A DNA stretch of 54,937 nt, filler included, from Streblomastix strix (Eukaryota), in the NCBI GenBank assembly GCA_008636045.1. It is 2 parts of 2 records of this genome, joined end to end, with 100 filler letters (N's around TTAATTAATTAA, not from the genome) between each part and the next. Parts side by side here need not be neighbours in the genome. Positions count along the whole stretch, not along the records: positions 1 to 27,422 come from SNRW01000143.1; 1 more part is not named here. One strand, 5' to 3'. Both the position numbers and the translations under genes were made by a program. The notes under the pieces were generated by a model, which saw nothing but the letters and a program-made list of their open reading frames with translations, searched no databases and was not told the DNA's origin. Position 1 is the stretch's first letter, and the number at the start of each line of letters is the position of its first letter. This document shows, one piece after another, positions 1 through 48,262 of this stretch.

Positions 1-504
1 TCTTTTTTATAAATTTGACCTCTTTTGCTTAGAATGCAATAATTTGGAGTATTGCGAGCATTTTACCAATTTTGAAAGCATATTTTTCTATCTATAAATA
101 TGAAATTGCAATTTCTCAAAATTATAAGTTACTTTCTAAATATTAATCGATTAAATATAAAAATTTTAAATTTATAAAATTAATTATATGTTTATAATTT
201 CATATTGTTAATATTAAACGTGACGAGTAGGTTTGGTCTAAACCATTTTTTCAATATGTTTAACGCTGTTATATTATGATGCAACGCAAAATACGTATGG
301 ATCGGATAAAGTTAATATACAATACTTTTGGAATCTAAAATTCTATCAATAAATATAAAAAAACTTCTTGGCAGAATCAAAAGCCAATAATGTCAATAGC
401 AGAAATTATTTTCACTAAAGAGTACTACAGACATGAAAAAAGAGTGCTATAGTAATGAAAATTAAAAAATATATTGATCTCTTAAATTTAAGAATAAAAA
501 ATCT
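1..504 (+). repeat. Outer inverted repeat, left copy
   Basis: 1-504 (tcttttttataaatttgacc...aagaataaaaaatct) is the reverse complement of 26917-27422, with scattered mismatches. Confidence 0.95.
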
Positions 505-1269
505 CACAAAAAAATCTAAATTTCAACAATGGTGTTGCGAACTGAGAAACTGATCATTCAAAACAGCTTTAGTAATATTTAAATTATCGATGACGCTTTC
601 GTAGAAAGTACTACTATAACGGCTTTAAACTAATAAATATAACTAATCCTAATCGTTTATCATGCAGCCTTATTTTTTTGAATAATAATGACAGAGATTT
701 CGAAATTCTTATTCTGTTAAAAATTGATAAATATTCCATCTAATTTTTCTTAAATTTTTTTAATTGGTTTTGAAAATTCATTTATTACACTATGCACACT
801 AATTATTAATAACAAATTAGCAATTTCAACAAAAGATAAAACAAAAAATATCATATTTACTAATGATTAAAACATCATTTTGAGAAAATAAAAATAATAA
901 AAATGAAAAAGTTTCTGAAAGTTTTTCTAAATTATTTGGTTTAATTTTTTACTCCAAACCAGTCTTATGCTATTCTATCATATAATTCATATGATCTTCT
1001 TTGAAATTATGAATATTTACTAGTTTCATTAGCTATTTTTTCACAGTGTTATTTCTACTGTAAATCTAAACATTCATCAATACATATTTTCTCATTGTTG
1101 TTATTTACTATTTGCTTATTGTTTAATTGTTGTCTGAACCATTAAAATACATCTTTTGCCTTCCAATTGGTTTCTTTTCAGAAATTGGATCCTATTACGA
1201 ACCTTCAAACAAATTATTATTATTAAATTCGTAATTTTAATACAAAAAAATTATTTATATTCATTGCAT

Positions 1270-2085
1270 TATAGATTAATATTTTATGCCATTAATTTTG
1301 TAAAGAACATTGGTATGACTACCACTTACAAATCACTATATGGATTCAATAACTCAACACTAACATTACCATTAACATTTTCTATGAATATACTAATTTT
1401 ATTGAAATTATGTCTAATTTTGTCAAACTAGAACTATATCTTTAAAGTGCCAATATGAACCAGTAAACTATTTCCTTTTACGTACTAATTCAAACATATT
1501 TGTTTGAATAATCTAATGACAATATTTAATTATTGTTATTATTTGGCCATTAATTAGCCTTTTATTCGCATATTATTTTGTTTATATTTCGTTCTATACT
1601 CGTTTAAATAAGCTATAGTTGGTGTTTGATTATTTAATTCAATAACCTATATCATTTATCCATCATTATCGAGTTCAATGATGTTATTTCCAAAATGCGT
1701 TTCTAATAGTTTGAATTACTCTATCAATAACTCTATCATGATTAGTGAATTTACTATCTGTGAAGAATGAATTTATCTAATTTTCTTTATAGAAATCGTT
1801 TAGTTATTTTTATGCATAAGACTTCTCACCATCTCCTCTGATATCATCAATCTAAACAAAGGATATAAGCTATTATAGAGCTTCAAACATTGGAATTTAT
1901 GATTTAGATTTCACTGATATTACTATTAAATATTTAGTGTTTACATTAATAGCGAATAAATATTGTTTATTTTCAACATTCTTTTCTATTATGAATACTT
2001 AATCTATTTCTTAAGAATTATAGGTGGGTGGGAAGTATGATCCTTCAAATTTCGCGAGTGGTTTTAGTTAATTGTCATGAGGTTC
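1270..2085 (-). pseudogene. Retroviral-like (rve) integrase of Maverick type, frameshifted; boundaries approximate
   Basis: Translation: YFPPTYNSQEID (D1, ~2002-2010)...YLFAINVNTKYL...DDIRGDGEK (D2, ~1822-1848)...FTNHDRVIDRVIQTIRNAF (~1692-1745)...ELNNQTP. This is the integrase core motif order. Confidence 0.75.
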
Positions 2086-2109
2086 TAGAGTATTAGTTTA
2101 AGGATAATA

Positions 2110-4513
2110 TATCGAAAAAAAGAAGTTTTGAAAAACTTTTTGTAGTAACAATAGTCATCAGCTGTTACATTTTTATCTGTTTCTCTATCTGTTTTATAAT
2201 CTTATTATTTACAATTATAACCCTTATTTTTCCAATATTATTCTGTCACTACAAAAGGTTTTGCCTAAGGATTAGGATTAGTATAATCAGCATTAAAATC
2301 AGAATCAGTATAATATGTTTATTTTTATACATTAACCTTAACATTAAATTTTGAGGGAAAGTTTGTTGAATACTGTTTCGTTATTTACGCACATGAAGCA
2401 ATTGAAACATAGTGTAAGACATCAATATTGAATTATTCAAATATATTAATTAAGCTCATTAATAGTTTAGCCTTAATCTCTGTATATTTATTGTTAAAAT
2501 GTTTGTGATATTCTAATCTATTAGTGAATCTCTTAAATTCAACCAAATATTAATCAAATTCATCATTTGTGACGGAAAATCCACCTCTGAGTTAAGATTT
2601 AAAATCGTCTTATTCACATAATTCTGTTTTCATTAATATTTTATTCAAATTCTTTGAGTTAATAATTTTATATAGAAAAACAATTTTATGTTCAGATTTG
2701 TCGCCATAATCTTTTACGCAAGCTTTTAATGTCATTGAACCAAATAGATTCTCTGCATCAATGAATTATAATTTCATATGTGATTTCTAATACATTACTA
2801 TAATTGATTTAGTACTATTGAGATCACCAATAGGTGCACCCATTATCCAAAGTTCATAGTCAAATGCGTCTCATAGAAATGATATACCAAATCTTGAACT
2901 ATTCAAGTCCAAAACTTTAACAAATTTGTTAAGACGAATATTGGGTCCTCATATATCGTACATTAATATATCTTTTCTACTGATTCGAACGCTTACGCAA
3001 GTCATAGATGAACAAAAGATGAAATTTTTGAGAGTTCATATCTTAATAAATAATTCTAAAATCACCTGCTAACTGATCAATTAATGTATAACATCTCTTA
3101 ACCAATTCATATGATTTAACTTTGCTAAATTAAACTTCTATTGATACTATTGATATTTTATATAATTGTGATAGTAAAGTTGTTTAATCTGTTCTATTTT
3201 TCATTATTTAATCGTCCAATGTTTCAAAGATATAAGTGATGAATACACGTTATGCTCTAAGCTAGTCCAACATCCTATATATCATTAAGTATTCAACTGT
3301 TGGATGATTTAATATTGCAGGACAAAGAAGAATAGGAAAATCGTGAAGTAAGATAAATTATTCATGAGATGAAGACATTCATTTTTCGACATATATATTG
3401 AAATATTCATTAACTCCAAAATTAGATTTTGACAGTTTTATAACGTAATTAAGATAGTTAGGCAATATAAGAATTCCAGTTAATTTTTCTATGTTAGACA
3501 CATTGATTGCAAGCAAATTTTTTCAATCGTTGATAAATAATAAGTTTAAAGTTATTGTTTCATTATTGAATTATCTACTTAAATTGAATTATCGATATTT
3601 ATCAGTTTATCTTTCTAATTCATAATAAAATTTATTAATATTTTCCTTTAATTACATAGAAATATGCCAATAGTAACTTGGAAAATGCAATAAATTAATT
3701 ACTTTCAACTTTTTTATCAATTTCATTTTTAACCCTAAATGTCAATGCTGTAAAGAAACAAATTTTTTAACCTGAACCAACATACTGAACTGAATGTTAT
3801 TTAACATGATTATCAAAATATAACGTACATGTTCCAGTATCTATTAGATTACTGATAACAAATATGACACTAATTATTCCAATAGTCAAATTATTTATAT
3901 CTCCGCATGTTCTTTCCATTTGTTCTTTCAATTCTCAGAATTTATCAATTCTAAATAGTTCAAATGATTTCTTATCAGATATTGTTCATTATTTGCATTT
4001 GAAAGCGTTATCTAGTATAGAAATCCTACAAGAATATATATAGTTAAATGAGCCCTATTTTCTTTAAATTTGTACGCGGAAGTCAATTTGAACCTTGATT
4101 GGAAGTCCATAATACGAATCTTATACTTTATTTTCAAATTATCAGAGTTGTTATCACTGAGTTTGTTTATTTAAATGATGAAAATTATAAGTTGTTTCGT
4201 CCGTAGTTAATATAAATGAACGCTGCCAAAATATATTAAAACGGTACCATTTGTCTAGGCCACAAACACGTCAACATTGATGTATTGCAATCACGAGATA
4301 TATGTTCTAAATTATTAGGATTCTTGAATATGGTGTGTTATTGTTTAATATTAGTTTTAAAAAATAACTTAAATGATCAAAATAATTAGTTGAGATGTGG
4401 AAATTGTTGACATAACTGAATGATTGCGTAAATGCGTGCAGCTATTGGAGATGAATGCTAAATCTTACTGCTTGATTAATGTGCGCATTAATGAGATCAA
4501 CAATGCTAAACAT
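2110..4513 (-). pseudogene. PolB-1: protein-primed-type family B DNA polymerase, N-terminus plus 3'-5' exonuclease only; polymerase domain missing
   Basis: ATG at 4513 (MFSIVDLINAH...). Degenerate ExoI FITYIFET (~3221-3243), ExoII VLDLNSSRFG (~2885-2915) and KLQFIDAENLFGSMTLKACVKDYG. The YWKNKGYNCKQQD...NVTADDY segment is homologous to PolB-2. The gene breaks off just before the integrase. Confidence 0.75.
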
Positions 4514-4811
4514 GAATTATTAAGTCAATATTGTGATTAGTTCTAGGACAAAATGATGACATTTTCATATATTCGGACAGCGCTCATTTATACTAACTAC
4601 GAACACAAATTCAATGATTTGTGTGCTACGTGACTAGCTTGTGGGTTAATGTGGTAGGTAAAATTTAATTTTACTAATGAAATTGAATATGTGGATTCCA
4701 GTAGCTCATCTAAGGTGTTAAAAAAAATAATGATGAAATTGATGCTTAAATTAATTCAATAAATTAATGGTAAAGGATAGATCTAAAACCAAAAATAATC
4801 GTCATAATCGT
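3478..4811 (+). repeat. Inner ~1.33-kb inverted repeat, left copy (contains the 5' part of PolB-1)
   Basis: Reverse complement of 25038-26370. Both ends were checked (tttttctatgttagacacattg... and ...aaaaataatcgtcataatcgt). Confidence 0.95.
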
Positions 4812-5553
4812 GATTTACGTATGTGATATGACCTTAAAATGAAGTGCTAGCGATATATGAAAAATCATGTTTTTGATCGAAAAATTAGCCCATCATAAAA
4901 ATATTTTATTAGTAATATAAACTTAAGAAATTTATTGAAAATTTTATGTTTTTAGAATGATTTGAGAATTAACACATAAGAGAATGTTGATATGTAGATT
5001 ACGGAAATGATGTTAAAAATAATTGATTGAACTGTTGATTGAGAAGAATTATGAGAAGTAATGACATGAATGATGGGACAAATTTCTGTTCCACATTAAT
5101 ATATGGGTAATTATTTGCAAAATTCAAGTTTTTATGCAAAGATGATAATTTTCTTGCTCAAATACAAAATATTGAATATTATTATACATACATTATATTT
5201 TTAATAAAATCATAAGTAAAAACCTCGATTGATGGGAAAATGAATTTTTTTAAAAAAAATCTTTTTTTGTTGAAAACATTTATAAAATCTATATATTTTA
5301 TACAAAATTAAAATTAATATAATTATATATAAATAATTCTTTAAAAATGAAACTTCAAAAATTTCTGCATCAAAAATTAACTCAAAATATTTTTAGATTT
5401 ATTTCGTTTCCAAATTGGATAATTCTCATGTTTATTTTATAAAATAATCTTTATTTGATATATATTAAAATATTAAAAGTTTTAAATAACAAAGTTATCC
5501 ATCCTTGAATTCAGCAAATAATTACCCATATGCATGCAAGCGACATGAGTAAA

Positions 5554-5653
5554 TGTGAAGGATTATCCGTGATTATAAGTAGATCGAAAACATGGGACGG
5601 CACAGCTATCAGAAATTGCAGGAATTTTTTATCTGCCATTGCTATACTTCCAT
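5554..5653 (+). repeat. ~100-bp imperfect direct repeat, copy 1 (upstream of the primase-helicase)
   Basis: tgtgaaggattatccgtgattataagt...agaaattgcaggaattttttatctgccat matches 8941-9040. Confidence 0.85.
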
Positions 5654-5874
5654 AAATGAAAGTTAGTTAGAAATAAATTATGAAGATTAATTGTGCATCG
5701 TGTAAATGAAGACATTTATCTATGTCTGGAAACTGTGCCAGCGTGCCAAATAGAAGGAGTGAAAATAATTGATCTCTAATTTCTTAGCCGGCCGGTCTCT
5801 AAATTAATTCTTCTGATTAAAATAAATAAAATTATTTTTATCAACTAACCAAAACATTTTATTTGTAAACTAAA

Positions 5875-8830
5875 ATGGCAACTTTAGAATCCTCAAGCGA
5901 CCAAACAAAATAATAAAACATCAAACAAGTGACTATTGAGAAAAAGACAAAAGGAGCATATCATTGTAAGTCAAAAACAAATGATGAAGCTGGAGCAAAA
6001 ATGAAATAATTAATCAAGGAATAAAAGGATAAGAAATAGGAAACAATTGAAATAGTTAGTGGAATCGTTAGTGGGATAGTGGACGCATCTCTCATTAATG
6101 AAACTATTAATGAATAGACAAATAAACAAACAATCAAAGAAAAACATGAGAAAATCCTACATGATCTACGTTATGCTGAAGGAGATTAGGAAACAAGACT
6201 TATGATATAGTAAGAAGTATATAGATTAGAAAAATAATGAAGATAAGAAGATGAAGAAAAGAAGGATAAACCTAATCCAAACAGCTAGGATAATATAATT
6301 GAGAGATAAGTTATTCAAAAGAGAATAGAAATATAAATTAAACCAATTAGCGAAAGAATTATAGGTACATGAATTGATACAGTGAATTATACTAAAAATG
6401 GTTAAAATGCAGGTGAAAAGAAATAAGTTACAGGCAAATTAATTGATTTAACTCTGAGAAAAGATGGAGATCTATGTGTGATTGATTTCGATATTAACAA
6501 GAATCTATCTAAAGAGAAAATTGATAAGATTAGCTAAAATATTTTAGATAATATGCTACCTGCTAATGTTGGGTTAGTTAAAACATGTCATAGTGGATTG
6601 GACGTTTGTTGTAATAAAAATGGCTATCGTCTTCCTAATAATCGAAGTGTAAAATGAATTGTATAGGATAACATTGAGATTGATATATTTACATAAGTGT
6701 AGAAGCATAAATAATTTGAAGATGATCCAATGTAAACAGATCTTGTGTTAAATCGTGTAGTTGGTTCGAACAGTGGCTTTCGAGAAACTAAAAATAATGT
6801 TAGAGAAACACTTAAATATGAAACGATTAATGATTGGACTAACATGACTTATTTAGCGAATCTAACAGATATAATTGAATCATGGAATGTTGATATTGAA
6901 ATATCATATGCGGAATTTGAGAAATTAAAAATATCTAGATAGTTTAGATAATGGATTACAAATGATGGAACTATAAATAAAATGGATGATGCACTTGCAT
7001 AAGTGTGTGTTGATGAATTGAAGAATTTTACTATTCATAACTACCCTCAACCAATGGCCATGAAATTATCATTATTATGTGTTTTCAGTGTGATTTATGC
7101 AATAATTATTGAACAAATAAGAGCTTAAGGATTAGAAAATCTACATAAATTTTATACGCTAACTCCAAACGCTGAGAAGAATTATGATTAAGCTTCAGGT
7201 TATGATGAATGTAAATCAAATGAATGGATCCTAACAAAAATACATAAATATCATAAAAAGGATAATAATGAATAAACAATAAATCTGTTATTGAAAAAGA
7301 ATTATGAAGCTAAAAAAGTTGAAAAATAAATATATATATATATATATATTAATCTTTAGTTCCAAATAAGATTGATTTATCTGATGAATTCACATTATTC
7401 AATATGAAAAAGAAAGCAGCTAACGGTGAATATGAAAATGAAGAAAAAAAGCGTGTAGGATTTCAGAAGATTACTAGTTTATTATGAAGGTGAAACTGAA
7501 GATAATTATACGGTTAAAAGATATGATGCCAATTGTGAGACATAAGTCTTACATCATTAGTGAGAAGGAACCTTATTTAAAATAATTAGAGAAAATCAAC
7601 ACTAATATTAAGAAGAAGAAGTTTGATGAAAAGACTAGTGAAAAGAATGATGAAACAAAAGAATCTAAACCATTAACTGCTAAACATATCTTTAAGAAAT
7701 ATGCATCGAAATTTGTGAAGAAAGGATATATAATCATTAGTGAAGATCCCAAAATACTCGGTATATTCCAAGGATATAAGTATAAGAGGTTAGAGAATGA
7801 TGAAACTAACTTTGATTGTTTGTAAATATACTATAGTCTAATTTAAGAAACCATTGCTGCAGGAGACTAACGAGTATATGAATATATTCTTAATTGGTAT
7901 GGATGGATGATATAAAATCCCGGAAAAAGTAAAGAGCTGTAATCATTTTACAAGGAAGATAGGGAATTAGTAAAAAAAGATTCATTGATGTAATTGCAGA
8001 ATTACATAATATATGTAGTTGTTCAAACATAGTAAATATTGATGAATTCACTGGAAAGTTCAATTCTGTAGTTGAAAATAAAATATTCGCAGAAGTGAAT
8101 TAAATAATGAATTGTAATTATTCTAAGAAAGGTGTTGCAACAGTAGCGAAATCATTAATTTCAGATTAAACCATAAGAATTATTGAAAAGAATTAGCCTA
8201 GAAGAACTGCTGAGAATGTGATGAATTTTAATATATGTAACTAACAGTGATATACCTGTTTAACTGGAAACTGATGATAGACGTCATTTAGTATGTCCTT
8301 GTAAAACTGTTCATTAAGTAAATGAAGACCATCCTGAAGAAACTGATTATTTTAAGAAATTAAGTTAAGGTTATACTTAAGAGTTCTATGAGAATTTGAT
8401 GACATATTTTCTTGAATGAGATGTTTCATAGTTCAAACCATCACTAATTCCAATGACTGAAGCGAAAAAATAATTAATAAATGTTAGTCGATCACCAGTT
8501 GATGATGTAATTAATGAACATTTCGAATAATTCAAATAAGGTATCCCAGTATCAGTTGCAAATTAATATAGACCAAAACAATGTATAATAAATCCATATA
8601 AAATTACTTTTGAACATATGTGTTCATAATCAAGGCCATACATTAATAAAATAAGAACTAGAATATATACATTGAATGAAGATTAGATAAGATATTTAAA
8701 AAAAATGATAAGTAAAAAAGATATTGAAACATCGCTAGCAAAGTATAAGAAATATAAGTAAGCGAATGATATTTATGGATACAATGATGAGAAGGCAAAT
8801 GAGAAGGATAATGAAAAGATAGAATAATGA
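5875..8830 (+). pseudogene. PrimPol (AEP-type) primase fused to a D5-like SF3 helicase, frameshifted
   Basis: Primase motifs CVIDFDI (~6475-6495, hhhDhD) and VKTCHSGLDV (degenerate KTxxGGxH). Helicase motifs LNWYGWMIQNPG...IILQGRQGISK (Walker A, ~7945-7975), GKFNSVVENK and LETDDRRHLV (~8265-8293). Confidence 0.8.
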
Positions 8831-8940
8831 AATTTATTTTTATTTAACAATCGGTTAATGGCAGGCAAAATGATGATGGGATAATTTGAAGTCTAAATTT
8901 ATGTGCCTGTTAAATTATATGTGCCAGCTCTATGAATAAT

Positions 8941-9040
8941 TGTGAAGGATTATCCTTGATTATAAGTGGGATGAAAACATATGACGGGATAGCTCTAAGA
9001 AATTGCAGGAATTTTTAATCTGCCATAACCATACTGCCAT
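8941..9040 (+). repeat. ~100-bp imperfect direct repeat, copy 2 (downstream of the primase-helicase)
   Basis: tgtgaaggattatccttgattataagt...agaaattgcaggaatttttaatctgccat. Confidence 0.85.
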
Positions 9041-10044
9041 TTCGTAAAATTGTTGAAAATTTATCTAATTCTCAATAGTTGGTGATTTACTGACTAAAAT
9101 GCACTAAATTAGACTGCCATATGAAATAAATTATGGCAAACTTCAAAAGTCAGCTCTAAACGTTATCCCATCCAGATATTTAAATTAAAACTAAATGATT
9201 CTATGCTTATTAACAATCTTTCAATATTTTTGTGAAAATGAAGATGGGACAATTTTAAAAGCATTAATCTAAATGGTTGCAATAATTAGACTGCTATGGT
9301 AATGTATTGATAAGCAAATTAGTCAATTGATCACTAGCTATTGATAATTAGATTCAAATTGAAAGATATGGCATTATGGCAGTATGACAGACGTTTTCGA
9401 CACGATTTTCAGAGAGCAGCCCAGTTTCTACGTCCAACGTACTTACCTTTTCAATATTTATATATAATAGTGGATAATTCTATAGAATTCTAGCATACTT
9501 ACATTAAACACAACAAACCATATGAGACAATTGGGACAATTAGAACGAACATATAATTGAACACAAGCTGTTAAATTTCAAATCATTTTTATCTTATTCA
9601 TTAAAAGGAAATCATTAATTCACTCATTAACTACACTTTAACTTATACAAACCCCTCAAATTAATCCAATCATTAACTAACAAATTGATCAATACATTAA
9701 CCCAATAATTTATCCAAAAATAAACTTTCAATATCAATCAAAATCAATTGCTTATATTACATTATTACATTTAATTATATATCATTGATTTGAAGCAAAT
9801 CTTTCATGATATTTGTAACAATTTTCTGAAGGCGTCGTATCAAGAGTAATTGTAAGTCATTTGCTTAAGCACGAAAATTTTAGCGTAGTATTCTATAACA
9901 TTATTGGACACGTTAACGTTGCCCTGCTACAATACGTTCTATTTGTTCCATGCTCAAACATTAATCATATTTAAAATTTTAATAAGTAATTTACTAGTAT
10001 TTTCATCTTAATTTAATATATATAATTTTATTGCATTGTTCGTT

Positions 10045-10748
10045 AATTCGAGTTAGTTATTTCATTAAATCTATTTACATCAGCATCCTTTATCTCTTCT
10101 CTATAAATCACTGCATCACCACTCTTTATTTAACGCTTCTTCATTATCTCTCTAAAGCTGATGTGTGAGTATTTCATTCATTATTTATCACAAATATTTA
10201 TTATTTCGTAATGTACGTGATAATAGAATAAATGATTTATGCTATTTATGTATGTTTTCAATGAATAGTACTCTTCTCATTCTTCCATTTACTTCGATAT
10301 GAGGATGAATGTGTTGATATAATAGATAGCAAGCAAACATAACCAATATCGTATCTTCGCCAATGTATTCATAAGCGAAGTTCACTAATTGTTAAAGTTC
10401 ATTTTGATCAATATTTTCATATTAAATTCCAACATTAGCTGCTGAGATTATTTTTGAATTATTCTTATTACTAACATACGCATTATATTACTTAAAAGTA
10501 TCTCTATGAAATAATGATCAATATAACTCTTCTATTTATGGTACTTGATTATTCTTAAGGTATTCTACAGCAAAAATAATATTGTCCTTAAGTAATATAT
10601 CTTATTAAATAATATTAGAATCAACTATGTATTAATATATGGTTTCATCTTAATGAATTAATTTCTTTTCACCAAGCTTCTTAACAAATACTTAACTAGT
10701 TGCCAAGTTAATTGCAAATTCAATAATTTTGTTAGATATCCAGAACAT
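10045..10748 (-). pseudogene. Fic/DOC-domain protein with in-frame TGAs; 3' end approximate
   Basis: MFWISNKIIEFAIN...FACYLLYQHIHPHIEVNGRMRRVL (motif ~10270-10310) resembles the Fic consensus HPFxDGNGRxxR, with the typical preceding helix. Confidence 0.7.
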
Positions 10749-10950
10749 TTTTATAACAAATGAAATGTAATTCGAGATAGTTGTTGGTATATCACTAATG
10801 TGCATCGCTTTTGCAAACATTGACTTGTTTCATATTGCTGCAAGTGCATATAATACGTTATATAATACTTTAACTAAAAAAGAGGAAAAGACTCCCATTA
10901 ATTTATCTTTTTATTTATGATTATCAACTAGTTATTTTTGAAAATAACAA

Positions 10951-11510
10951 ATGCCATAGAAAAGATCAGTATCACCATCTGAAAAAATATATTAAAACGA
11001 ACCTATGTCATCACTTTAATCCGTTTCGATAATTCCTGCGATAGTTGAAATAGATTCTTCATTCGAAAAGGAGTAAGAAAAAGCATCAGTTTCCACGTAG
11101 CGATCAAGAAGATCATCAATATTTGAAGAAATTATAGATCCAGATCCATCAGTTTATCGCTGATTATTGGATATAATTATAGAAGATGAACATATGATTA
11201 AAGAATCTGCTCATTTCATATTATCAGAACCTTAACTAATAAGAGTTTTTGCATATACATTTGATATCATAGAAAATGAAGCTATACTTAATATTGAAGA
11301 TGAGGGAAGTTGTGGGAAATTCATGCATGAAGGAATAAGAACATTAAGTTATGTTACAATTAATAATGTAAATATACATACACTCGATTTTTGAGAGAAT
11401 TTATCTTCTCGGAGATTCTTTTAAATTTTGCTTATAAAAAGTTAGAAATATAACTAGTATACTAGATCTAGGAGACATCTCATCAAAACTAATGTCAGCA
11501 GCAAGTAATT
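10951..11510 (+). pseudogene. Hypothetical element protein with in-frame TGAs; 3' end approximate
   Basis: Reads MPQKRSVSPSEKIYQNEP...LSEPQLIRVFAYTF in code TAA/TAG=Q and is preceded by the element's T-rich upstream motif. Confidence 0.45.
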
Positions 11511-11571
11511 GATTATTGGCTGTTCTATCATAAATTCACTAATTTCACTCTAAATCATTTTTAGCAATTAA

Positions 11572-14571: not shown

Positions 14572-14609
14572 AGCAAAAAAGGCTAATCATATTATTATTG
14601 AACTAAGAA

Positions 14610-16217
14610 ATGAGTTTTGAAGTAGGCAGTGTTTACCTAGATGAAGCATTATTAGATGCAATACTATTTGAATTTTCAGATTTATATGATTATTTGTAAC
14701 ATCAAGAACCAGTTCTACCAGCATAACGAATACCAATAGGAGAATAAACCTTACAAAAATAGGTGAAAGATAATGATGATATTATCTTTAGTACGAACAA
14801 TGTATTCGTTCCTCCAGTATCAAATGTACCTACAAAATTGGATTTAAGTTCATAGCTAGAACGATCCAGTATCTTAACATCAAGTGTATCAGATCCATAA
14901 TTAATTATATACGGTGATCGTGTCACATTAACCGTATCATATGAAACTACTGGATTGTTTGCTAATGGATATTTATTCAAAAATTATCCTGAAGAAGCGA
15001 GATCAAAAGCTGGAGATAAAGCGATTGCATTAGTTGAGACAGATACAACGAATAAAAATAGTTTATTTTGTTGTATCGATTAGAATGGACCTTCTATCAT
15101 TAGTATTTCATAAATTCCATCAAAAACTGCACTCGTAATAAATGTATCTTATTACTAAAAATATGAAAAATCGATGAAAATAAATTTTGATGTAAATTAT
15201 GATGGACAAGTTGATATATTGTATACATGGCATATTATTAGCAAAGGAACATTTAAATCATATTCTCATGTGTATAAAACTTTGAAAAAGTAAACTGAAT
15301 TGATTGCTACTGGATTGTTCGCTAATAATAAATTTTATTATTTGAATAATGATACAAAATTAATGGATGAATTTGCAGTCAATAAAGCGGATAGAGCAGC
15401 TTTGTTCATTAAAGAAGGTCCATTTATTTTTAAATTCATTTTTGGAGCTAAATTTGGATAAATAATATAATAATAAGCTAATTCAGAAAATCAATAAACA
15501 GTTCATAGATTATTTTCGACTATTACTTAAAAACTTCTTCCACCAAATACGAAATATATTCCTATTCGAACTTAACAATTAGAATATACTGTTATGTGTT
15601 TGTTCAAAGATATCTATGATAAATCATTAGCAGTAGAAGCAGCTGTAAATAAAATATTGAATAAGTATGATTGTGAGATTCAAGGAACATATATACTCGA
15701 TAACTATAAGAATCCAACATCAAAAGAAGAACTAAACGCTATACCAACCTATCCATTAGTTCCAAAAGAACATGATTATCACATTGATGAAGTGATAATA
15801 AAATATAATACATAATTTGCATCATCATTTGAACCAACATATACAATAACTAACGTATTCAATTACATTCAACTATTTGCACCTTTTTATCAGGGTGATC
15901 ATGCTTATAATACGTTTTATATCGTTGATGATACGACTTGCAGAGTATATGTATTCAATCTATATTTCGAAACAAAAGGATAAGCAACAATTATGTAAGA
16001 GATTGGTAGAATTCTTGATGTGATATTACGACTTGATGGTAAAAATGTGGGATTTCCTGCACCTGTCTATAGAAATGCTGGTGGATATATTAATTGGTTA
16101 GGTATATGTTATTTCATATTCAATCAATAATATAAAATGTTGTATTGCTTTTGGCAAAATGTTCAAGAAGTTAATCCTGAATCAACAAATGATATATATA
16201 AATATTGTTCAAGTTGA
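14610..16217 (+). CDS. Hypothetical ~535-aa protein, possibly virion structural; frame open
   Basis: Uninterrupted frame in code TAA/TAG=Q (MSFEVGSVYLDEALL...YKYCSS*) that includes track ORF 15594-15815. It lies between the fibre and MCP genes. Confidence 0.6.
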
Positions 16218-16677
16218 ATGTACTATTTATGAGACATTGATTCGAAAATATGATGCTATTACCTTCGTTTTTGCAGTTTAAAATAATGGCGCCGGAATAT
16301 TCAGCAAGCCTAAAACATTAGTCTCAGTTGTAGGTAAAAGTGTCAGTTGGATAAATTGTAAATAGTCAAACCAATAATACCCATAACTATCGCACTTCAG
16401 TCATCTTTGGGACCAGAAGGAAGTATCATAGCGAAAGTAATTAGTGCTGGATCATCTTCAATTGATGCATTATGAGGTTTCAAACAAATAATAATCAAGA
16501 TAACTATTCAACTAAGATTTCAAAACATTCCGATATGATGATTACTTAAGATAAAAGTTCTAATTGATATAATTAGCAAACGAATATTACTTCTTGGAAA
16601 TGAATTTTAATGATTTAAAGTGAAACATCATTCGAATTAACTAACGTATAAATCAAATTATATTTGTTGAATTTAAC

Positions 16678-18399: not shown

Positions 18400-18428
18400 T
18401 ATCAATGGAACATTATTTTAATAATAAA

Positions 18429-18801
18429 ATGAGATTTGGTATGACTTCTGCTCTGAATGTGAAGCGCTTCGTATTAATGTTGGATGATTGTATATATGGT
18501 GATGGAAAGATTAAAGTATAGATTCCTTATGATTTTGATAATTCTAATAATGAACGAAAATATTATTCATACAATGCAAGATACCTAATACGCCAGATAT
18601 TATTTCTATTCATTCAACACTAGTGCAAAAAAATAATATTACAATAGTTTTGTAAGTTTTTGTAATGAAACTAGAACAATTGCTGAAATTTAATAAATGA
18701 ATCACAAACCAGATATGTTAATTTGGTTCAAGAATAATATGAATTAGAATGTATTTTAAACGTATATAAAATTTGTTGTTGAATTAATGCAGGAATATTG
18801 A
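18429..18801 (+). pseudogene. Small hypothetical element gene, frameshifted
   Basis: Starts MRFGMTSALNVKRFVLMLDDCIYGDGKIKVQIPYDF and ends ...FVVELMQEY* in another frame. Confidence 0.35.
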
Positions 18802-19176
18802 TTGCGATTATTTTTGTTATAAATAAATGGAGAAAAAGTGTTAGCTGAATAGTATAAACAATTATTATAAATCTAAGATTAAACTAAAGAGACCATTGAA
18901 CTTACTAAAAGAAATAGTAACTCACGCAATAAATTAAGCAAAAAATAATCACTAGATTAGTTGGATTAACTTATAGCTTTGTTGATCATATGGCATGGGA
19001 AAATGACAAAAATGAAAGATTAAGTCAAATGGAAAATTATGATAAAGAAGTTAATGATATTTTCAAAGAAGTTTAAGCATTATAAATTAAATTGTTCTTG
19101 CTGAATTATTTTTTGCAACAATGGAATAGTTATTCATTCACTTGAGAAACTAATCTAACTTTTATATAACTCATAA

Positions 19177-20070
19177 ATGACATAAGAAACCCCTTCAACT
19201 AGACAAATTGACTTGAACAACGAAAATTTAACAATTGGTTCTTGCTACGGATTTGAAATTATGGCAAGAGATAAAAACTACAGCATTAATGCAACAAAAT
19301 TAGTTCAATTGATTAATGAAAGAGAATTTACAACGAAGGAACTTCGAAATATAACACGTTCACCAACTTTCATTGAAAATAAATAATATCTAGAACAGAC
19401 TAATCTCTTCAATTTGAACGGAGCTCTTACTTACTTACTTCCGATTGTAATTTTGAATGACGTTAGAAGAACATACGTTTGTAAGTAGTTATTGAATATA
19501 ATTTGCTTAAAATCGTCAGTTAAGAGCTTTCACCATGTAACAACTATAATCGATAAAATAATAGAAATAGTTATTACTGAATGCAATGCTGATCCAAATA
19601 CTCCTATAGGTACACGTGTAAGTAATGTTACAAGTGAATTTATGAACTAACAATAAGATAAAATTGATTAATTAAGAGAATTAAATAATGAACTAAGAGA
19701 ATTGAATTGTGAATTAAATGATGATGTAAAATTATTAATTCCATGAGCTGTTCCGAAAGTCAAATAGAGAAGCTTTTGCTTAATAGTTGAATACGTTCAT
19801 TAATTTAGCGATTAAATAAAGATATAAATTAGAAGAAAATTGAAGAAATCTATCTGCAGAGGATTAATGGAATACTTTAAACATGACACATTATTATTTT
19901 TCAATAATCTACCAATAGCAACAATTAATGAAATAATTAAAGAAGAATTTTCTAACCGAAAAGGACCGAAAATAAAAGGCATAAAACTAGCATTTCCTGA
20001 AGACTAATTGGATGATATAATCGAACGAATTAAGGAGATTGTAATTGAAGTAAAGATATATGTACAGCTG
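19177..20070 (+). pseudogene. KilA-N domain protein with coiled coil (in-frame TGA at 19744); 3' end approximate
   Basis: GSCYGFEIMARDKNYSINATKLV...VRRTYVCKQLL matches the KilA-N signatures INATKL and (G)TYVH. Confidence 0.75.
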
Positions 20071-20093
20071 CATTTTATTTTTGTTAAATTGAA

Positions 20094-20450
20094 ATGTCTC
20101 GAATGTTATTTGATAGTAAGCTAATTAAGAACTATAAACCTGTAGATTGAATCTAAACATTGCCAAAACTAAAAATATTTAATAAAATTGATCTATAACC
20201 AATGACATTTGGTACAACTGATGAGTTCCTTTAATATTATGCAGCTAACTAAGAAACTATTGATAAGATGCCAACTATACGATTAAATAAATAATATAAA
20301 GTGGAAGGATATATCTTCACACGTTAGAATGAATAAATGGCGTTTAAATAATCCTAACGCAAATCATCTGAATATTATGAATTGATTAATATATTTTAAT
20401 TAATTAAAGAAATCAATGAAAAATAAAAATATATTTAATTAGCTTCTTTG
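20094..20450 (+). pseudogene. Small hypothetical element protein; 3' end approximate
   Basis: MSRMLFDSK...DEFLQYYAANQETIDKMPTIRLNKQYKVEGYIFTR, with one in-frame TGA. Preceded by the upstream motif. Confidence 0.45.
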
Positions 20451-20489
20451 AATAAAAATAGCAATCAATCTCTTATTAAGAAAATGTAT

Positions 20490-21277
20490 ACATTCATTGA
20501 ATCTAATAATTCTTACAATAGTTCCATCATTACTATATTATGCCAATAATGCTTCTCGTTTACCTAATTACATATACTCATTCAATAATATTTGCTTATC
20601 TAACGATAATGATGATTAATAAAAGAACAAATTGAATTTTTATCTATTGGATCTACCGAAAAACTATATATAGTATCAACGTTTGATTTAATGCTAGCTT
20701 CTAAACCAATTATATCTTGCAAACATAGGAAATAAGTGATTCATGGCTATCTATTTTTGAATAGTTTCTTATATAATAGATTGATCTTATTTTTGAATAC
20801 TGTCATAGCATCATCGAACAACTTAATTGAATGTGGAAACTTATTAGATAAATCTTTTGTTCCAATATGAGATAATATATCCTTCTTTGATTCTTCCTTC
20901 ATTTAACCTTCTAATTTATATTCATTTACTTCATCATAAGCCTTCATACAATCAATCAGTTCATCTAATGTTCCATTAACTTCTACATATGGTACTATTT
21001 TTGTTGGGAAAATTATTAAATTTTTCATTTTCTTATAAGTTATAACATTATTGCTATCAGTTACGTATTTGAATAGTGAATAACAATGATTAAGTAATTA
21101 ACTCAATTTGATTAGCTCTTTGAACGCATAATATGATTTACTGCTACTTCGTTAAACTATGAGTAGATTTATAGAATTGTATGGGAAATAATGCTCTTTA
21201 AGAATCATTGATTATACTTCATGTTCATTAGTTTTTTGTTTACTAAGTAATTGATTTACTTAACTAGTTAAAGACAT
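20490..21277 (-). pseudogene. A32/FtsK-HerA-like genome-packaging ATPase, degenerate; 3' end approximate
   Basis: Eroded Walker A INLLIVQRSSSKS, Walker B SIKLFDDA, and KLFKNRQP*ITYFLCLQD (Arg and Gln motifs) followed by IKSNVD. Confidence 0.8.
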
Positions 21278-21322
21278 TTGCTTGTTATTAATTATTTTAT
21301 TCGCTTATGTTTTTGTTAATGA

Positions 21323-22152
21323 ATGTTTTTATTAAACATAATTATCGATTTTTACCTAAATTCAAAACATTGAGATAGACGCATTTGCATAACATCAAAA
21401 AAACAATGAATAACTCAGATATTTTTCAAATGCAACAGGATTTCCTTCTACACAAAATGGAGGATAAATTCTTGAAATTTTAATTGGATTCATTAACGAA
21501 GATGTTAAGAGAATTAAAGAACTTGAATTATTAACTTCAGCTCAAACATATATTGCTCGTCATTCTAATAGAGGGTTTCGTGTTGAAGCTGAAGATCTAG
21601 ATAATATTGTTGATACACATGATAATACTATAATATATATGGAAGACAAGGAAATATTTATGCAGTTGATGGATTTTATATAAAATAAAGTTTTGGAACC
21701 AAAAATGAAAAAGATGTGAAAAAGCTTAGAAACAGAGATTTTGACAAATCATTATACTGACAATGTTTTTGAAAATAGGTCAGCAAACAAAGGAAAGAAA
21801 GTATAAATTAAAAAAAAGTAAATTAATTCCATATTAAGTGTATACAACACAGAAACATGGTAATATTGATTTATAAAATAATTCAATTGCAAAAATTTAT
21901 GAAGAATCGAATTGTTAGAAATTTAGAGCATATGTTAGAATTAAATTAATCAAAAGATTAGGATTAAAAATAAATACATATATAGAAGCAAATAACGCAA
22001 AATAATAATCAGATATTAAGGTTACATAACGATTATATAATATTAAGAGAGCTGGCTATCGATTCGCAGCAGCTATCTTTAATATACTTGCATAAGAAAT
22101 TAATTAGATTGTAGCAACTGAATTTTAGAGATTAAGTGTTGGAAATCAATGA
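21323..22152 (+). pseudogene. Hypothetical element protein, frameshifted
   Basis: Coding-like stretches in code TAA/TAG=Q (LTSAQTYIARHSNRGFRVEAEDLDN; GNIYAVDGF), ending ...RLSVGNQ*. Confidence 0.4.
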
Positions 22153-22187
22153 TGATGATAACGACATATTATTTTTTGTTTAACAAA

Positions 22188-25040
22188 ATGATTCGATCGA
22201 AAATGACATTTGCAGATGCTAATCGATTACTCTAATTAAATGATCCAAATATAGACATAAATGCGAGTAATAATATGAAAAGATCAGCGCTAAGTTCTAT
22301 ACTGACAAAGATCGGACCCTATGGTTAACGTAATAACGTTAATGCTGTGGAATATGCGATTAATGCAGCAGTTTCTCGTAGATAATTTATGCAATAAACT
22401 TAAGGAGCAACTGTTATTCAATAACATGTTCAAAAGCGGTTCAATTAACGAGAGCAATAACGAATAACACGTGAATAATAACATAAAGTGGAATAAGAGT
22501 AATTATAAAAATAATTATAATAAGTTATTAATGAATTATGAGAAGAATTTGATCCAGAATTAATAGATGAAGAAAGAATATTTGACCCAGATAGATACCG
22601 ATAATAATAGCAGTAATTAAGAGCATTAGAGTTAGAAGAACGTAGAAAAAAATAAGATAAGGATAGGTAGACAAGATTTGTCTAATTATTCGATGAATTG
22701 CATAATGTTTAGGATATGAACATCGATATATTATTCGAAATAGACTAATAAAAAATTAGCGATTATATTAAGACCCATGAATAATTTGTGTTCCATCATC
22801 TCGATACTGATAATAATGTGATTAGGTGATATGATATATAGAATGAAGAATAATTCAATAGGATTAAGAATCTGTCATTTTCTCGATTCAATAAGGATAC
22901 TTCAACTCTGTAGTATAATTCATATAATTTATTATCAATTAATTAAATCAAACCAACTAAATAATATTACAGTAATATTGCTTCATAAGCTGATTTAGAT
23001 AAACATTTAGACTCCGTATATGATAAAGAAAAAGATAATGTGTTTAAACTAGCTGTTGATTTTGTTGTGCTAATTGAACGTGTTAATGTTAATAATTATA
23101 TTGAAGAATTGAATAAAAATAAATCATTTCCTATAGAAACATTTGATAATCAATTATGTAATTAGAAATTAAGTGAAACAAAGTATTAGCCATATTTGAT
23201 CGATGCTGCTCAATTCATTAAGAGATGGGATTATTTGAAGCATTATAACATACTCGATACTAGAATTATCATTGAACCATTAGATTATTTGACTGATCTA
23301 ATGTCCAAATATAAAATAGATATGTTAGCCAATATATCAATGTCACAATGCTCTAATGCGAACAAATGTTCTATGGTATATATAATGATTTCGATATCAA
23401 TAGTGATTATAATTCAGAAAGTATTGATAAATCAATTAAAGTTACTATGCGTTATTGGAGGGCTAAAGCTGACAGTTATAATGAATAAGATAATAAGAAA
23501 GGTAGATATTCAAACAATAATGTAACGATTAATGATTATGATTAATTTAAAGATATATTCAAGAATTAACGATGTTACATGTGTTATGCGAGATTTTCAT
23601 GGAAAAATGGACTAACATTGGATCGAATAGATAATAATAAAAGATATTCAAAAGATAACGTACTTTCATGTTGTTTGTACTGTAATGTATGCAAAGTTAA
23701 TAGAGATGTAAATTAGATGAGATTATTGATATAATTAAAGAAACATGCAATATTTAAGCAATTACCGATGACATTGATCATTGATGAAGGATATCAATTA
23801 TTGCGTAAACGTATTACAGATGGTCGATCTAAGTAATGTATCGATATAATATAGCTGGATAAATAAAATTAAATCATTTCGAATTTGATTAGGAAAATAT
23901 ATGTGTATATTCAATAGATTCAGATTACTTTTAAACACATGTAGTATGATTAGACTTTCACAGTTAATATACGAGTGTTATTATAGGAGAAATGAATATG
24001 TTTAATCTATACACTAATCACATAATTTACATGCCAGCATAACTTATTGAAAGAATAACAGATTAAGAACTATGTAAGTAGTTGATTTATGATGCTAATT
24101 GATTATCTGAAGATACGTAAATGGTAGATAAAATGTTATTATTTGTTGCAGAAGTTAAAGATCAAACTGATGAGCAATATATTAATGATTTTATCAATTG
24201 GGGGTCTAATATCACATAAAATTGATATAACAACAAACAATGAAACAATCTGAGAATTTTAATATATTCATCTAATAGATCATCAACTTCCCCATGAAAA
24301 AGTGGAAATGAAATTGACGAATTTATTCGATACTAATAATTAAGTAATATCATTCAATGAGTATTATTTATAGCTATGGATGGATACCAGTCATTTTATA
24401 ATTGATGATATATATAGTTTCATAACATTCACGAAACATACTAATTTTAACTCATTTGTGAAGGTATTTATGAAAGTGATATATCAAGCAAAATATTTTA
24501 AGAATGAAGGATTGGGATAATTTTGTAAATTAATATTGAATTCAGCTTCCGGTGGTGATGCATTGAATTGAAAGAAATACTCTAATACGAAACTATTCTC
24601 GGCTAATAAAACAATTGTGCAACATATGATGAGTGAATTCATTCATTCAACAGAATTAAATGATGATTTGTACGCTATATCGGTGGACAAGCAAAACTGA
24701 AGATGTAACAGATGTTTATAAGTTGCTTATTTCGTATTAGATTCAGCGAAATTTTGGTAGGTTAATTTTATATATGACTTAATGAAGAAAGCGTATGATA
24801 TGAATCGTTTGCATTTTATACAAGGAAATACTGATAGTTTGATACTTGCTATTAATGGATATTCAAATCGTGGTCCTGAACAGTAGTTTGATGCAATTAT
24901 TAAAGATAAATAGTTCTACAGTAAATATATGGATTGTATATATTACGATAATGGATAAAAATAGATATTACACATTGGTGTAGAAAAATATAGTTATAAT
25001 TGAATTGCATTATCTCATAAAAATTATATAATTAATGACG
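22188..25040 (+). pseudogene. PolB-2: protein-primed-type family B DNA polymerase with an HNH-like insert; exonuclease largely deleted; 3'-truncated
   Basis: Motif A LDFHSQY (~23950), motif B FCKLILNSASGG (~24521-24556), motif C QGNTDSL (~24821, from GDTDS) and IALSHKNY. It stops at the inner inverted repeat. Confidence 0.85.
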
Positions 25041-26370
25041 ATTATGACGATTATTTTTGAATTTAGATCTATCCTTTACCATTAATTTATTGAATTAATT
25101 TAAGCATCAAATTCACTAATATTTTTTTAATTCCTTCGACCAGCAACTCTAACTTATTTATTCAATTTCATTAGTAAAATTAAATTCGACACACCACACT
25201 AACCAACAAGCTAATCATGTAGCACACAAATCATTGAATTTGTGTTCGTAGTTAGTATAAATGAGCGCTGTCCGAATATATGAAAATGGCATCATTTTGT
25301 CCTAGAACTAATCACAATATTGACCTAATAATTCATGTTTAGCATTGATGATCTTATTAATGCGCACATTAATCAAGCAGTAAGATTTAGCATTCATCTC
25401 CAATAACTGCACAAATTTATGCAATCATTCAATTATATCAATAATTTCCACATTTCTACTAATTATTTTGATCATTTAAGTTATTTTTTAAAACTAATAT
25501 CAAACAATAGCACACCATATTCAAGAATCTTAACAATTTAGAAAATATATCACGTGATTGCAATACATCAATGTTGACGTGTTTGTGGCCTAGACAAATG
25601 GTACCGTTTTAATATATTTTGGCAGCGTTCATTTATATTAACTACTGACGAAACAACTTATAATTTTCAACACTTAAATAAACAAACTCAGTGATAGCAA
25701 CTCCGATAATTTGAAAATAAAGTATAAGATTCATATTATGGACTTCCAATCAAGGTTCAAATTGACTTCCGCGTACAAATTTAAAGAAAATAGGGCTCAT
25801 TTAACTATATATATTCTTGTAGGATTTCTATACTAGATAACGCTTTCAAATGCAAATAATGAACAATATCTGATAAGAAATCATTTGAACTATTTAGAAT
25901 TGATAAATTCTGAGAATTGAAAGAACAAATGGAAAGAACATGCGGAGATATAAATAATTTGACTATTGGAATAATTAGTGTCATATTTGTTATCAATAAT
26001 CTAATAGATACTGGAACATGTACGTTATATTTTGATAATCATGTTAAATAACATTCAGTTCAGTATGTTGGTTCAGGTTAAAAAAATTGTTTCTTTACAG
26101 CATTGATATTTAGGGTTAAAAATGAAATTGATAAAAAAGTTGAAAGTAATTAATTTATTGCATTTTCCAAGTTACTATTCGCAAATTTCTATGAAATTAA
26201 AGGAAAATATTAATAAATTTTATTATGAATTAGAAAGATAAACTGATAAATATCGATAATTCAATTTAAGTAGATAATTCAATAATGAAACAATAGCTTT
26301 AAACTTATTATTTATCAACGATTGAAAAAATTTGCTTGCAATCAATGTGTCTAACATAGAAAAATTTACT
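25038..26370 (-). repeat. Inner ~1.33-kb inverted repeat, right copy
   Basis: Near-identical reverse complement of 3478-4811. The ORF track lists the 63-aa shadow ORF at 25805-25996 inside it. Confidence 0.95.
25335..26370 (+). pseudogene. Second copy of the PolB-1 5' region (fragment)
   Basis: Inside the right inner repeat: MFSIDDLINAHINQAV...GQKNCFFTAL. Confidence 0.65.
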
Positions 26371-26824
26371 ATTTTCGTCATATATCCCTTCGTTGATTCC
26401 TTCTGTTTTCTAAGATTTATTTACTCTTTTTAATGTTTTAATCACTTAATCTTCATCTTCTACATTATGTAATTATAATCCGTTAAATGAAAGTAAATTT
26501 ATTATTCTTAAATTTTCTATTGTTGAAAATATTCCCCGATTATTAATACACATTCTACATCTATAGCTAAAAGTAATTATATTTAATTTTGTTGATTTTA
26601 TCATTAAATATTCTATTTAAATCCAACAGATTATAATTGCATTTTTCTATATAATCAAATGTTTTTTAACCTCAATTTATCATTTTCAAACATTCATTGT
26701 TAGTAATGTAATCATAGTCATTCTTTAAAGTATTTTTGAACATCATCTAAGTATGTTTTGAATTTTTAACCGATCTCATAATTCTTATAAGTGCAAGTAC
26801 TTCTTCTTTTGACAATTTGAGCAT
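26371..26824 (-). pseudogene. Small hypothetical gene, truncated at the inner repeat
   Basis: MLKLSKEEVLALIRIMRSVKNS... preceded by the T-rich motif; has in-frame TGAs. Confidence 0.35.
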
Positions 26825-26916
26825 TTATAACTAAATAAAAATTTAAAATAAATAATACAATTAATTTAATATTTTCTATGAAATATTGACTGAAATAATT
26901 TTATTCATCATTTTTT

Positions 26917-27422
26917 AGATTTTTTATTCTTAAATTAAAGAATCAATATATCTTTTTGTTTTCATTACTATAGCACTCTTTTTTCATGTCTGTAGTATTC
27001 TTTAGTGAAAATAATTTCTGCTATTGACATTATTGACTTTTGATTCTGCCAAGGTGTTAATTTTTTATATTTACTGATAGAATTTTAGATTCCAAAAGTA
27101 TTGTATATTAACTTTATCCGATCCATACGTATTTTGCGTTGAATCATAATATAACAGCGCTAAACATATTGAAAAAATGGTTCAGACCAAACCTACTCGT
27201 CACGTTTAATATTAACAATATGAAATTATAAACATATAATTAATTTTATAAATTTAAAATTTTTATATTTAATCGATTAATATTTAGAAAGTAATTTATA
27301 ATTTTGAGAAATTGCAATTTCATATTTATAGATAGAAAAATATGCTTTCAAAATTGGTAAAATGCTCGCAATACTCCAAATTATTGCATTCTAAGCAAAA
27401 GAGGTCAAATTTATAAAAAAGA
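26917..27422 (-). repeat. Outer inverted repeat, right copy
   Basis: Ends ...gaggtcaaatttataaaaaaga, the exact reverse complement of the first bases of the window. Confidence 0.95.
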
Positions 27423-27522
27423 NNNNNNNNNNNNNNNNNNNNNNNNNNNNNNNNNNNNNNNNNNNNTTAATTAATTAANNNNNNNNNNNNNNNNNNNNNN
27501 NNNNNNNNNNNNNNNNNNNNNN
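27423..27522. other. Artificial contig spacer
   Basis: 44 N + TTAATTAATTAA + 44 N. Confidence 0.99.
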
Positions 27523-47700: not shown

Positions 47701-48262
47701 TTCCAATATCTGCAAAGATATACCTTCATATATAATAACCGTATTGATAGTTTTGGGAATTGCAATTTTATAATTAATTATTATTATTATTGTTCTAGTA
47801 ATCGTTATTACAGTGTGGAAAAATGAATGAAATGTTTATTAATTGTATTATTATTTAATCTCTCTTAATTTAATACTCTAATTATAGGTTCGAAGTCGTG
47901 GTGCTAGTAATAATTCAGCCCAAACTTCTTCATATTCACAAATTAATTCAAAAGCTGTTCCATAAGGAGAATAATATTCTCAGAATTTTAATTCTTCTTA
48001 ACCTCCACTTCATCCACAGTTAAACCCACTTCATTAACAATAATAAGAGTTACAATAACATCCAAAGAGAAAAAAATCACCATTGAAATAAAAATCTCCT
48101 AATCGACAAGAATCACCATTAGAAGATTCTCAAGAAGAAGAATCTTCAGAACTTCACACTCCACCTCCTGAAAACAAGAAACTCCATAAGAAATAACGAC
48201 CTCAAAAGTAAAAAGCAAAAAAGAAACAAAATACTCCAAACGAACAAACTGATTAGGGATGA
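41793..48262 (+). CDS. Large type-I membrane protein: signal peptide, S41 peptidase, Cys-rich repeats, inactive papain-like domain, TM helix and cytoplasmic tail
   Basis: Signal MRFSFLVLAFLLILPATC. S41 motifs LKDPH, MIDVR|GNGGG and ITDGVCGSTCS (~44032-44064). Introns at 42201-42309, 43547-43642, 44104-44251 and ~47813-47887. Hydrophobic segment at ~47730-47812; TGA at 48260-62. Confidence 0.8.
45064..45359 (+). repeat. 296-bp intragenic direct repeat, copy 1
   Basis: Matches 47269-47564; the one difference I saw is ggaagttgt versus ggaaattgt. Confidence 0.95.
47269..47564 (+). repeat. 296-bp intragenic direct repeat, copy 2
   Basis: See copy 1. The ORF track also shows duplicated shadow ORFs here. 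Confidence 0.95.

Follow-up and report, generated by a model that had tools for sequence, protein, structure and literature searches.

The first 27,422 bases of the stretch of DNA analysed here (54,937 bases from the Streblomastix strix assembly GCA_008636045.1, the window) form one complete contig, SNRW01000143.1, which is followed by an N/linker/N spacer at 27423–27522 and then by a second contig. We consider it likely that this first contig is a decayed, probably mosaic insertion of a Metamonada Maverick/Polinton-like virus in what is likely the recoded S. strix. Its structural genes are predicted to code for a double-jelly-roll capsid, for a fibre together with a receptor-binding protein that has several heads, and for a peptide that is likely to be membrane-active. 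These genes lie together in the middle of the contig:

11005–11490 (+), small conserved gene, immediately before the fibre in many copies; 12 fibre gene models have a matching N-terminal piece
11572–14571 (+), fibre-like gene of 999 codons with two in-frame TGA; repeat shaft, BppL_N-like motifs and a C-terminal tip of type A
14610–16217 (+), ORF535, an open frame; domains 72–184 and 410–535 have a predicted fibre-head/receptor-binding fold
16285–16613 (+), small frameshifted gene, the homologues of which start with a basic amphipathic helix
16678–18399 (+), major capsid protein gene of 573 codons, cluster MMPC_40, with two in-frame TGA (17506 and 17650)

The identity of the element comes from the capsid. 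Over 570 amino acids it is 65% identical to P0519, a protein within the confirmed MMPC_40 set of Bellas et al. 2023 (PMC10120064), which includes capsids of S. strix, T. vaginalis and Tritrichomonas foetus. This similarity bears out an earlier reading made from the sequence without database searches (the sequence-only reading), which had proposed an endogenous Polinton-like virus, and membership of the double-jelly-roll capsid family, which that reading had also held, is shown by homology to MMPC_40, although the capsid's own fold model gave no match. A modelled MMPC_40 member matched the Sputnik capsid with a Foldseek E of 2.6e-12, others being about 32% identical to T. vaginalis, and the S. 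strix endogenous viruses were described as using a code with TAA/TAG as Gln and giving 820 capsid hits in one assembly (PMC10120064).

The capsid-like open reading frame (ORF) had 109 matches including its own, and all 108 named relatives are annotated as Streblomastix strix. Together with the fibre (the best 120 of 598 matches) and ORF 14610–16217 (90 relatives), it confirms that the three are real multi-copy genes. As the annotated relatives all come from S. strix, this oxymonad, a protist of the termite gut, is very probably the host. A profile search retrieved 418 capsid relatives at E ≤0.001, many of them unnamed and of 540–670 amino acids. In a quick tree of 42 chosen rows seven S. strix capsids formed one side of a branch with support 100. 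Other copies retain full-length capsid genes (565–573 amino acids), and clustering at 90% gave one group of 91 members, indicating that younger subfamilies exist. The Atlas neighbours of the relative P0206, at 0.96–0.98, included Preaxostyla, Parabasalia, Preplasmiviricota and the Capsid_N/Capsid_NCLDV clusters. At least one capsid locus was present in metagenome_contigs (L001, 1914–3083), with an open frame of 390 codons in table 6; upstream of it, on the other strand, there is a fragment that we take to be glycoside-hydrolase-like. Many of the unnamed relatives of 540–670 amino acids (P0206–P0341) come from metagenomes and, being 18–35% identical to the window capsid, point to an undescribed spread of the group. 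P0486 and P0136, identical full-length proteins of the capsid and ORF535 types with two nearby locus tags each, are either young tandem copies or annotation duplicates.

The order fibre, ORF535, small gene, capsid is kept in other copies. In a count made by eye on the locus tags and the lengths of the contigs, a capsid homologue was found at most two locus tags away from 16 of the 90 ORF535 homologues and a fibre homologue adjoined the same number (16/90), all three genes being present on 5 contigs. Fused gene models also show one small gene lying between ORF535 and the capsid and another ahead of the fibre. Synteny across copies, on which the sequence-only reading had staked its proposal, was thus found for the structural module.

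The slightly longer ORF 14568–16217 had 90 matches, all annotated as Streblomastix strix. In the ORF535 model residues 72–184 and 410–535 have predicted local distance difference test (pLDDT) values of mostly 65–88, and in VIA domains 1 and 3 gave best Z scores of 10.0 and 9.4. The top eight VIA rows were all phage proteins of the tail-needle, receptor-binding or tailspike kind (Z 7.9–10.0, root-mean-square deviation 2.4–4.2, 91–109 residues aligned). Zamilon Zav_19, Noumeavirus NMV_189 and the heads of adenovirus and reovirus came next, and the whole model reached Z ≥8 for 4 of 48,161 chains. Foldseek on BFVD gave 11 matches at E ≤0.001, the named ones from phages. ORF535 is predicted by these models to carry at least two fibre-head domains; that the middle region is a third head is a guess. 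The predicted fold of domains 1 and 3 is shared with lactococcal/Listeria phage heads, Zav_19, NMV_189, the adenovirus knob and reovirus sigma1, but ORF535 differs from known fibre heads, as far as a predicted monomer tells, in having at least two heads per chain, short linkers, no long shaft and only 2–14% identity. Virions of virophages and giant viruses are known to contain this fold (10.1101/2023.01.23.525297). ORF535 was considered also as a penton, which is ruled out for the modelled domains by their match to fibre heads. The receptor-binding role that the sequence-only reading had given to the fibre and to the large ORF beside the capsid is probably right for both proteins.

The small gene at 16285–16613 had no family match. 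The helix moment of five homologues was 0.48–0.63, against control maxima of 0.50–0.52 in three proteins, and four of the five exceeded the controls. From the character of the helix and the position of the gene, its product is likely to be a membrane-active entry protein, presumably comparable to adenovirus protein VI. Membrane-active accessory genes are present in adintoviruses, and their products resemble this one in being small, basic and amphipathic and encoded in the virion gene block (PMC8502044).

The fibre matched the tail fibre family phrog_10305 at E 3e-4 and Pfam BppL_N at E 8e-5, the latter below the cut-off. It had 598 matches, the best 120 of them all annotated as Streblomastix strix. 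Many Polinton-like viruses have phage-like fibres, BppL_N among their parts, as do elements of T. vaginalis, in which phage-tail repeats are described (PMC12220804), and one (Ltf) in the particles of Gezel-14T (10.1101/2022.07.28.501842). The window fibre is like them in its long repeats and phage-like parts, BppL_N among these, but it differs in lacking any Pfam match to an S74 chaperone, collagen or laminin. The related fibre P0363 gave no match by tblastn against phages and no usable match in the Atlas named clusters. The shaft repeat at 12610–13076 is a very abundant genome repeat, with a summed depth of 238,588 compared to 44 at the contig end.

We compared the tips of 121 fibres (the window's own and the best 120 of the 598) with seven reference tips chosen by eye, which were 14–34% identical to each other. 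A type could be given to 71 of the 121 (C 25, D 19, B 13, A 9, C2 2, E 2 and B2 1), the 50 untyped being mostly truncated or fused proteins. The tips are complete, terminal and mutually unrelated domains of 100–116 amino acids, mostly 70–95% conserved within a type, and at sequence level the fibre family is shown to carry at least five unrelated tip domains on related shafts. On a tree of a 150-amino-acid shaft core with 56 rows (46 once 10 weak tip calls were removed) the approximately unbiased (AU) test rejected a single clade for types D (p 3e-38), C (p 1e-57) and B (p 1e-5). Among 12 of the 16 fibre–ORF535 pairs, several share both flanks but differ in the tip: P0375 and P0363 have cores 88% identical and downstream ORF535 starts 83% identical, with unrelated tips. 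This pattern fits a cassette exchange of tips, presumably by recombination as in phage fibres. The caveats are that the gene models are automatic, that the assembly may contain chimeras and that integrated copies may recombine neutrally with one another.

The same data can be read as a family that spreads only within the genome, in which case the tip swaps would be neutral recombination, gene conversion or chimeric assembly and would be silent on virions. The 820 capsid hits in one assembly and the very high depth of the shaft repeat provide ample homology for recombination or misassembly, and no viral contig was found. However, complete and unrelated tips conserved within each type need an outside source and selection, the younger copies keep full-length capsid genes, and a comparison of capsid genes between two subfamilies gave a higher divergence for third codon positions (0.49) than for second ones (0.22). 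We therefore regard exclusively intragenomic spread as rather unlikely, the tip differences between similar copies being likely to reflect a virus that was once infectious.

The code of the element was examined through its homologues. The longest stop-free frame grew from 111 amino acids with table 11 to 575 with table 6, but 50 shuffles of the sequence gave table 6 frames of up to 509 amino acids, so that frame length says little about the code. By contrast, TAA/TAG codons stand on columns with ≥50% Gln at 10 of 17 capsid positions and 16 of 21 ORF535 positions, and two of these codons fall on columns where 68 and 63 of 70 distant relatives have Gln. TAA and TAG make up 63–93% of the Gln codons in seven genes of the element and 59–82% in five host ORFs on the neighbouring contig. 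This homology is strong evidence, and shows that the element uses the TAA/TAG=Gln code; the host code assigned by the sequence-only reading stands, on both the Gln columns and the codon share. A reassignment of TGA was rejected, the columns of the two capsid TGA carrying differing residues among the homologues.

The TAA and TAG codons might instead have arisen after insertion through C-to-T decay, the active virus having used the standard code. A change from CAA to TAA is a single transition, silent in S. strix, and the contig copy is decayed. However, the three structural genes retain 12 CGA and 8 TGG against 4 TGA, with TAA/TAG at 63–78% of their Gln codons, and in the less decayed L001 capsid gene the share is 75%. 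The TAA/TAG share is for these reasons not a product of decay, and this origin is extremely improbable. What the codon use indicates is long residence in a recoded host. Of the long adaptation claimed by the sequence-only reading the duration is therefore supported and the adaptation is not.

The other recognisable genes of the contig are the following:

829–2154 (−), core 1678–2154, integrase of the retroviral type, broken into pieces by frameshifts; Pfam rve E 0.014, below the cut-off
2150–4815 (−), exonuclease-type region 2150–2870, 5′ portion of a putative protein-primed PolB, from motifs; no Pfam or PHROGs match
5875–8830 (+), broken primase–superfamily 3 helicase gene; DUF5906 on 7882–8247, three TGA in 5875–7329, frameshifts
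9968–10829 (−), Fic-like gene, broken, its Fic motif degenerate; Pfam Fic E 0.1
19177–20205 (+), broken KilA-N domain gene; Pfam E 1e-4, just under the cut-off
20585–21277 (−), putative A32-type packaging ATPase with one TGA; degenerate Walker motifs
22830–25033 (+), 3′ portion of a second, different PolB, broken; endonuclease VII/HNH insert and palm motifs

Against Pfam, the gene identities first proposed fared unequally: the helicase part is secure (DUF5906, E 3.5e-9, exceeding the cut-off), KilA-N falls marginally short, and rve and Fic are weak.

The contig copy is dead. It is pseudogenised and cannot make virions. In-frame TGA codons are present in eight of the nine spans counted (capsid 2, fibre 2, primase part 3, PolB palm 3, and one each in the ATPase, KilA-N and Fic), ORF535 being the only span free of them, and frameshifts affect the integrase, the primase-helicase, PolB and the small genes. 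Intact core genes, as expected of an active virus, were not found, since capsid, fibre, ATPase, primase-helicase and PolB all carry TGA stops or frameshifts. With these lesions and the two PolB fragments, the compact array described by the sequence-only reading has to be given up. The stops and frameshifts could alternatively be consensus artefacts of collapsed similar copies, the element itself being intact, as found for another protist by Bellas et al. (PMC10120064). Against this, eight pieces of 527–977 bases among the separately assembled contigs of run X1 match bases 1–14000 with 0–1 differences at a depth of 21–47, one of them (13024–14000) spanning a fibre TGA with no difference, although the comparison covers the first half of the contig only, the capsid stops lying outside it, and the X1 contigs probably derive from the same reads as the window assembly. 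The terminal branch of the window capsid is also long (0.27, compared to 0.03–0.07 in two sister copies). An artefactual origin of the damage is on this evidence very unlikely.

The following repeats are relevant to the boundaries and structure of the contig:

1–510 (+), left arm of an inverted repeat, 96% identical to 26911–27422
26911–27422 (−), right arm, pairing with 1–510
3478–4815 and 25034–26370, opposite orientations, inverted duplicate of 1338 bp, 95%
5528–5653 and 8917–9040 (+), direct repeat of 126 bp, 81%, bracketing the primase-helicase gene

The 510-bp arms extend to both contig ends, with no true termini or target-site duplication visible. The outermost 127 bases, and no more, are the same at the two ends; this points to an overlap in the assembly graph, and read in this way the true ends of the element are not visible. 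The minus-strand 5′ PolB fragment adjoins the integrase and ends where a nuclease insert would start, and we infer that 3478–4815 is its N-terminal portion. The plus-strand fragment contains the endonuclease VII/HNH domain within its frame (23297–23992, +, phrog_1035 E 9e-10). The two are distinct, in opposite orientation and 27% identical over the 63 amino acids of their overlap. Since there are two unlike PolB fragments, an inverted duplicate, direct repeats flanking the primase-helicase and the 127-base end overlap, the gene set is not supported as one virus genome, and the contig is probably mosaic, with two or more elements contributing to it; mosaicism has been reported (10.64898/2026.10.13.758929).

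A single element with long terminal inverted repeats, bearing both PolB and primase-helicase together with Fic and KilA-N and later damaged by deletion, would account for the inverted repeats at both ends and the second inverted duplicate near them. It would also agree with the GC content of 21–30% along the whole contig and with a size of 27 kb, inside the 14–40 kb range of PMC12220804. We find it the less probable explanation, because the PolB fragments are so dissimilar and opposed, the primase-helicase gene has direct-repeat flanks of its own, and neither true termini nor a target-site duplication of such an element can be seen. Some further details of these repeats can be mentioned. The minus-strand PolB fragment stops at about the endonuclease VII insert point of the plus-strand PolB. 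The 126-bp direct repeat may mark a separate mobile unit or the ends of an element. Within the 1338-bp duplicate there is an internal inverted repeat of 54 bp, about 80% identical (4199–4252/4551–4604, with copies at 25244–25297/25596–25645).

Several results weigh against the interpretation of the contig as a decayed Maverick/Polinton-like virus with a predicted entry module. The predicted structure of the window capsid, from 48 near-identical rows, had pLDDT 36 and no meaningful fold match (Foldseek best E 0.2, VIA best Z 3.4), a 77-row capsid profile retrieved nothing relevant in PDB or Pfam, and scans of viral_contigs gave no relatives. In ORF535 residues 185–408 are below pLDDT 50, Foldseek on PDB gave nothing at E ≤0.001 (best 0.008), and three sequence repeats within the protein were not supported (hhalign probability <3%), the profiles of the three domains having no significant similarity among themselves. 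Type A, the window's tip, was not rejected as a single clade (AU test, p 0.61), and a recombinant origin of the window's own fibre is accordingly unsupported. PolB, packaging ATPase and primase had no relevant Pfam or PHROGs match apart from the endonuclease insert, nor did the ATPase span have any relevant PDB match; we take their identities from degenerate motifs. Neither a penton nor a protease was recognised on the contig. For an adenain-type protease there was no Pfam match in the 90 of 277 stop-to-stop frames scanned and the motif scan was chance-like, with a sensitivity reduced by decay. The sequence-only reading had likewise recognised none, but such a lack is common in these viruses and primase-helicase modules are frequent (PMC12220804, 10.64898/2026.06.19.733378). 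The small or broken ORFs at 18484–19142, 20202–20612 and 21255–22826, without family match, are candidates for the absent penton and protease.

Much of what is described here was already known, and the novelty attributed to the element by the sequence-only reading was overstated: recoded S. strix viruses and their long-term association with the host are in Bellas et al. (PMC10120064), and the fibre and PrimPol-helicase that it regarded as unusual are both common in Polinton-like viruses. The Metamonada Maverick-Polintons of cluster MMPC_40 in that article share with the window the capsid family, the likely S. strix host and the TAA/TAG=Gln code. Its available parts deal with the capsid, and do not describe the neighbouring genes, ORF535 or the tip diversity. 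It is the only description of S. strix endogenous viruses found in our literature search. Neither ORF535 nor the small gene nor an exchange of tips was found described for the Metamonada family in that search, although supplements may hold some of this. For Polinton-like virus fibres, the available parts of 10.1101/2022.07.28.501842 and PMC12220804 likewise mention neither tips that can be exchanged nor a separate protein with several heads. The Metamonada Maverick-Polinton group has been left unplaced, its virion genes being too divergent (10.64898/2026.06.19.733378). New here are the predicted fibre heads of ORF535, the small amphipathic-helix gene before the capsid and the unrelated fibre tips. 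The recoding and the dead copy add little to the published record, which gains above all from the annotation of the entry module and from the exchange of tips.

The entry module and the evidence for tip exchange offer a way of testing whether Metamonada Maverick-Polintons ever leave the cell. Active relatives would integrate through the rve integrase, copy their DNA by PolB or the primase-helicase and package it by the A32-type ATPase. The fibre tip and the ORF535 heads would bind receptors on the host surface, the amphipathic peptide may carry the virus across a membrane, and tips would be traded by recombination in the style of phage fibres. TAA and TAG would drift into Gln positions over a long passage in S. 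strix, and a copy such as the one in the contig would then mutate without selection. The cell surface of S. strix is coated with bacteria. A bolder proposal, which we offer tentatively and with some doubt, is that these recoded viruses are truly infectious and engaged in a cell-surface arms race, with unrelated phage-type tips reshuffled on one shaft and a second, multi-head adhesin, possibly docking on the bacterial coat of the protist. Virophage tail proteins that bind bacterial lipopolysaccharide (PMC12724248) would be a precedent for such docking. If it were true, past switches of receptor would be preserved in the host genome as in a fossil record, and the virus would be confined by its code to recoded hosts.

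Rfam and tRNA searches gave no matches. The second contig carries host genes at window positions 42439–47830 (+), among them one for a cysteine-rich protein of 1173 amino acids that has a hydrophobic segment at its C-terminus and an internal duplicate of 300 bp, preceded by an ORF that we take to be peptidase-like.

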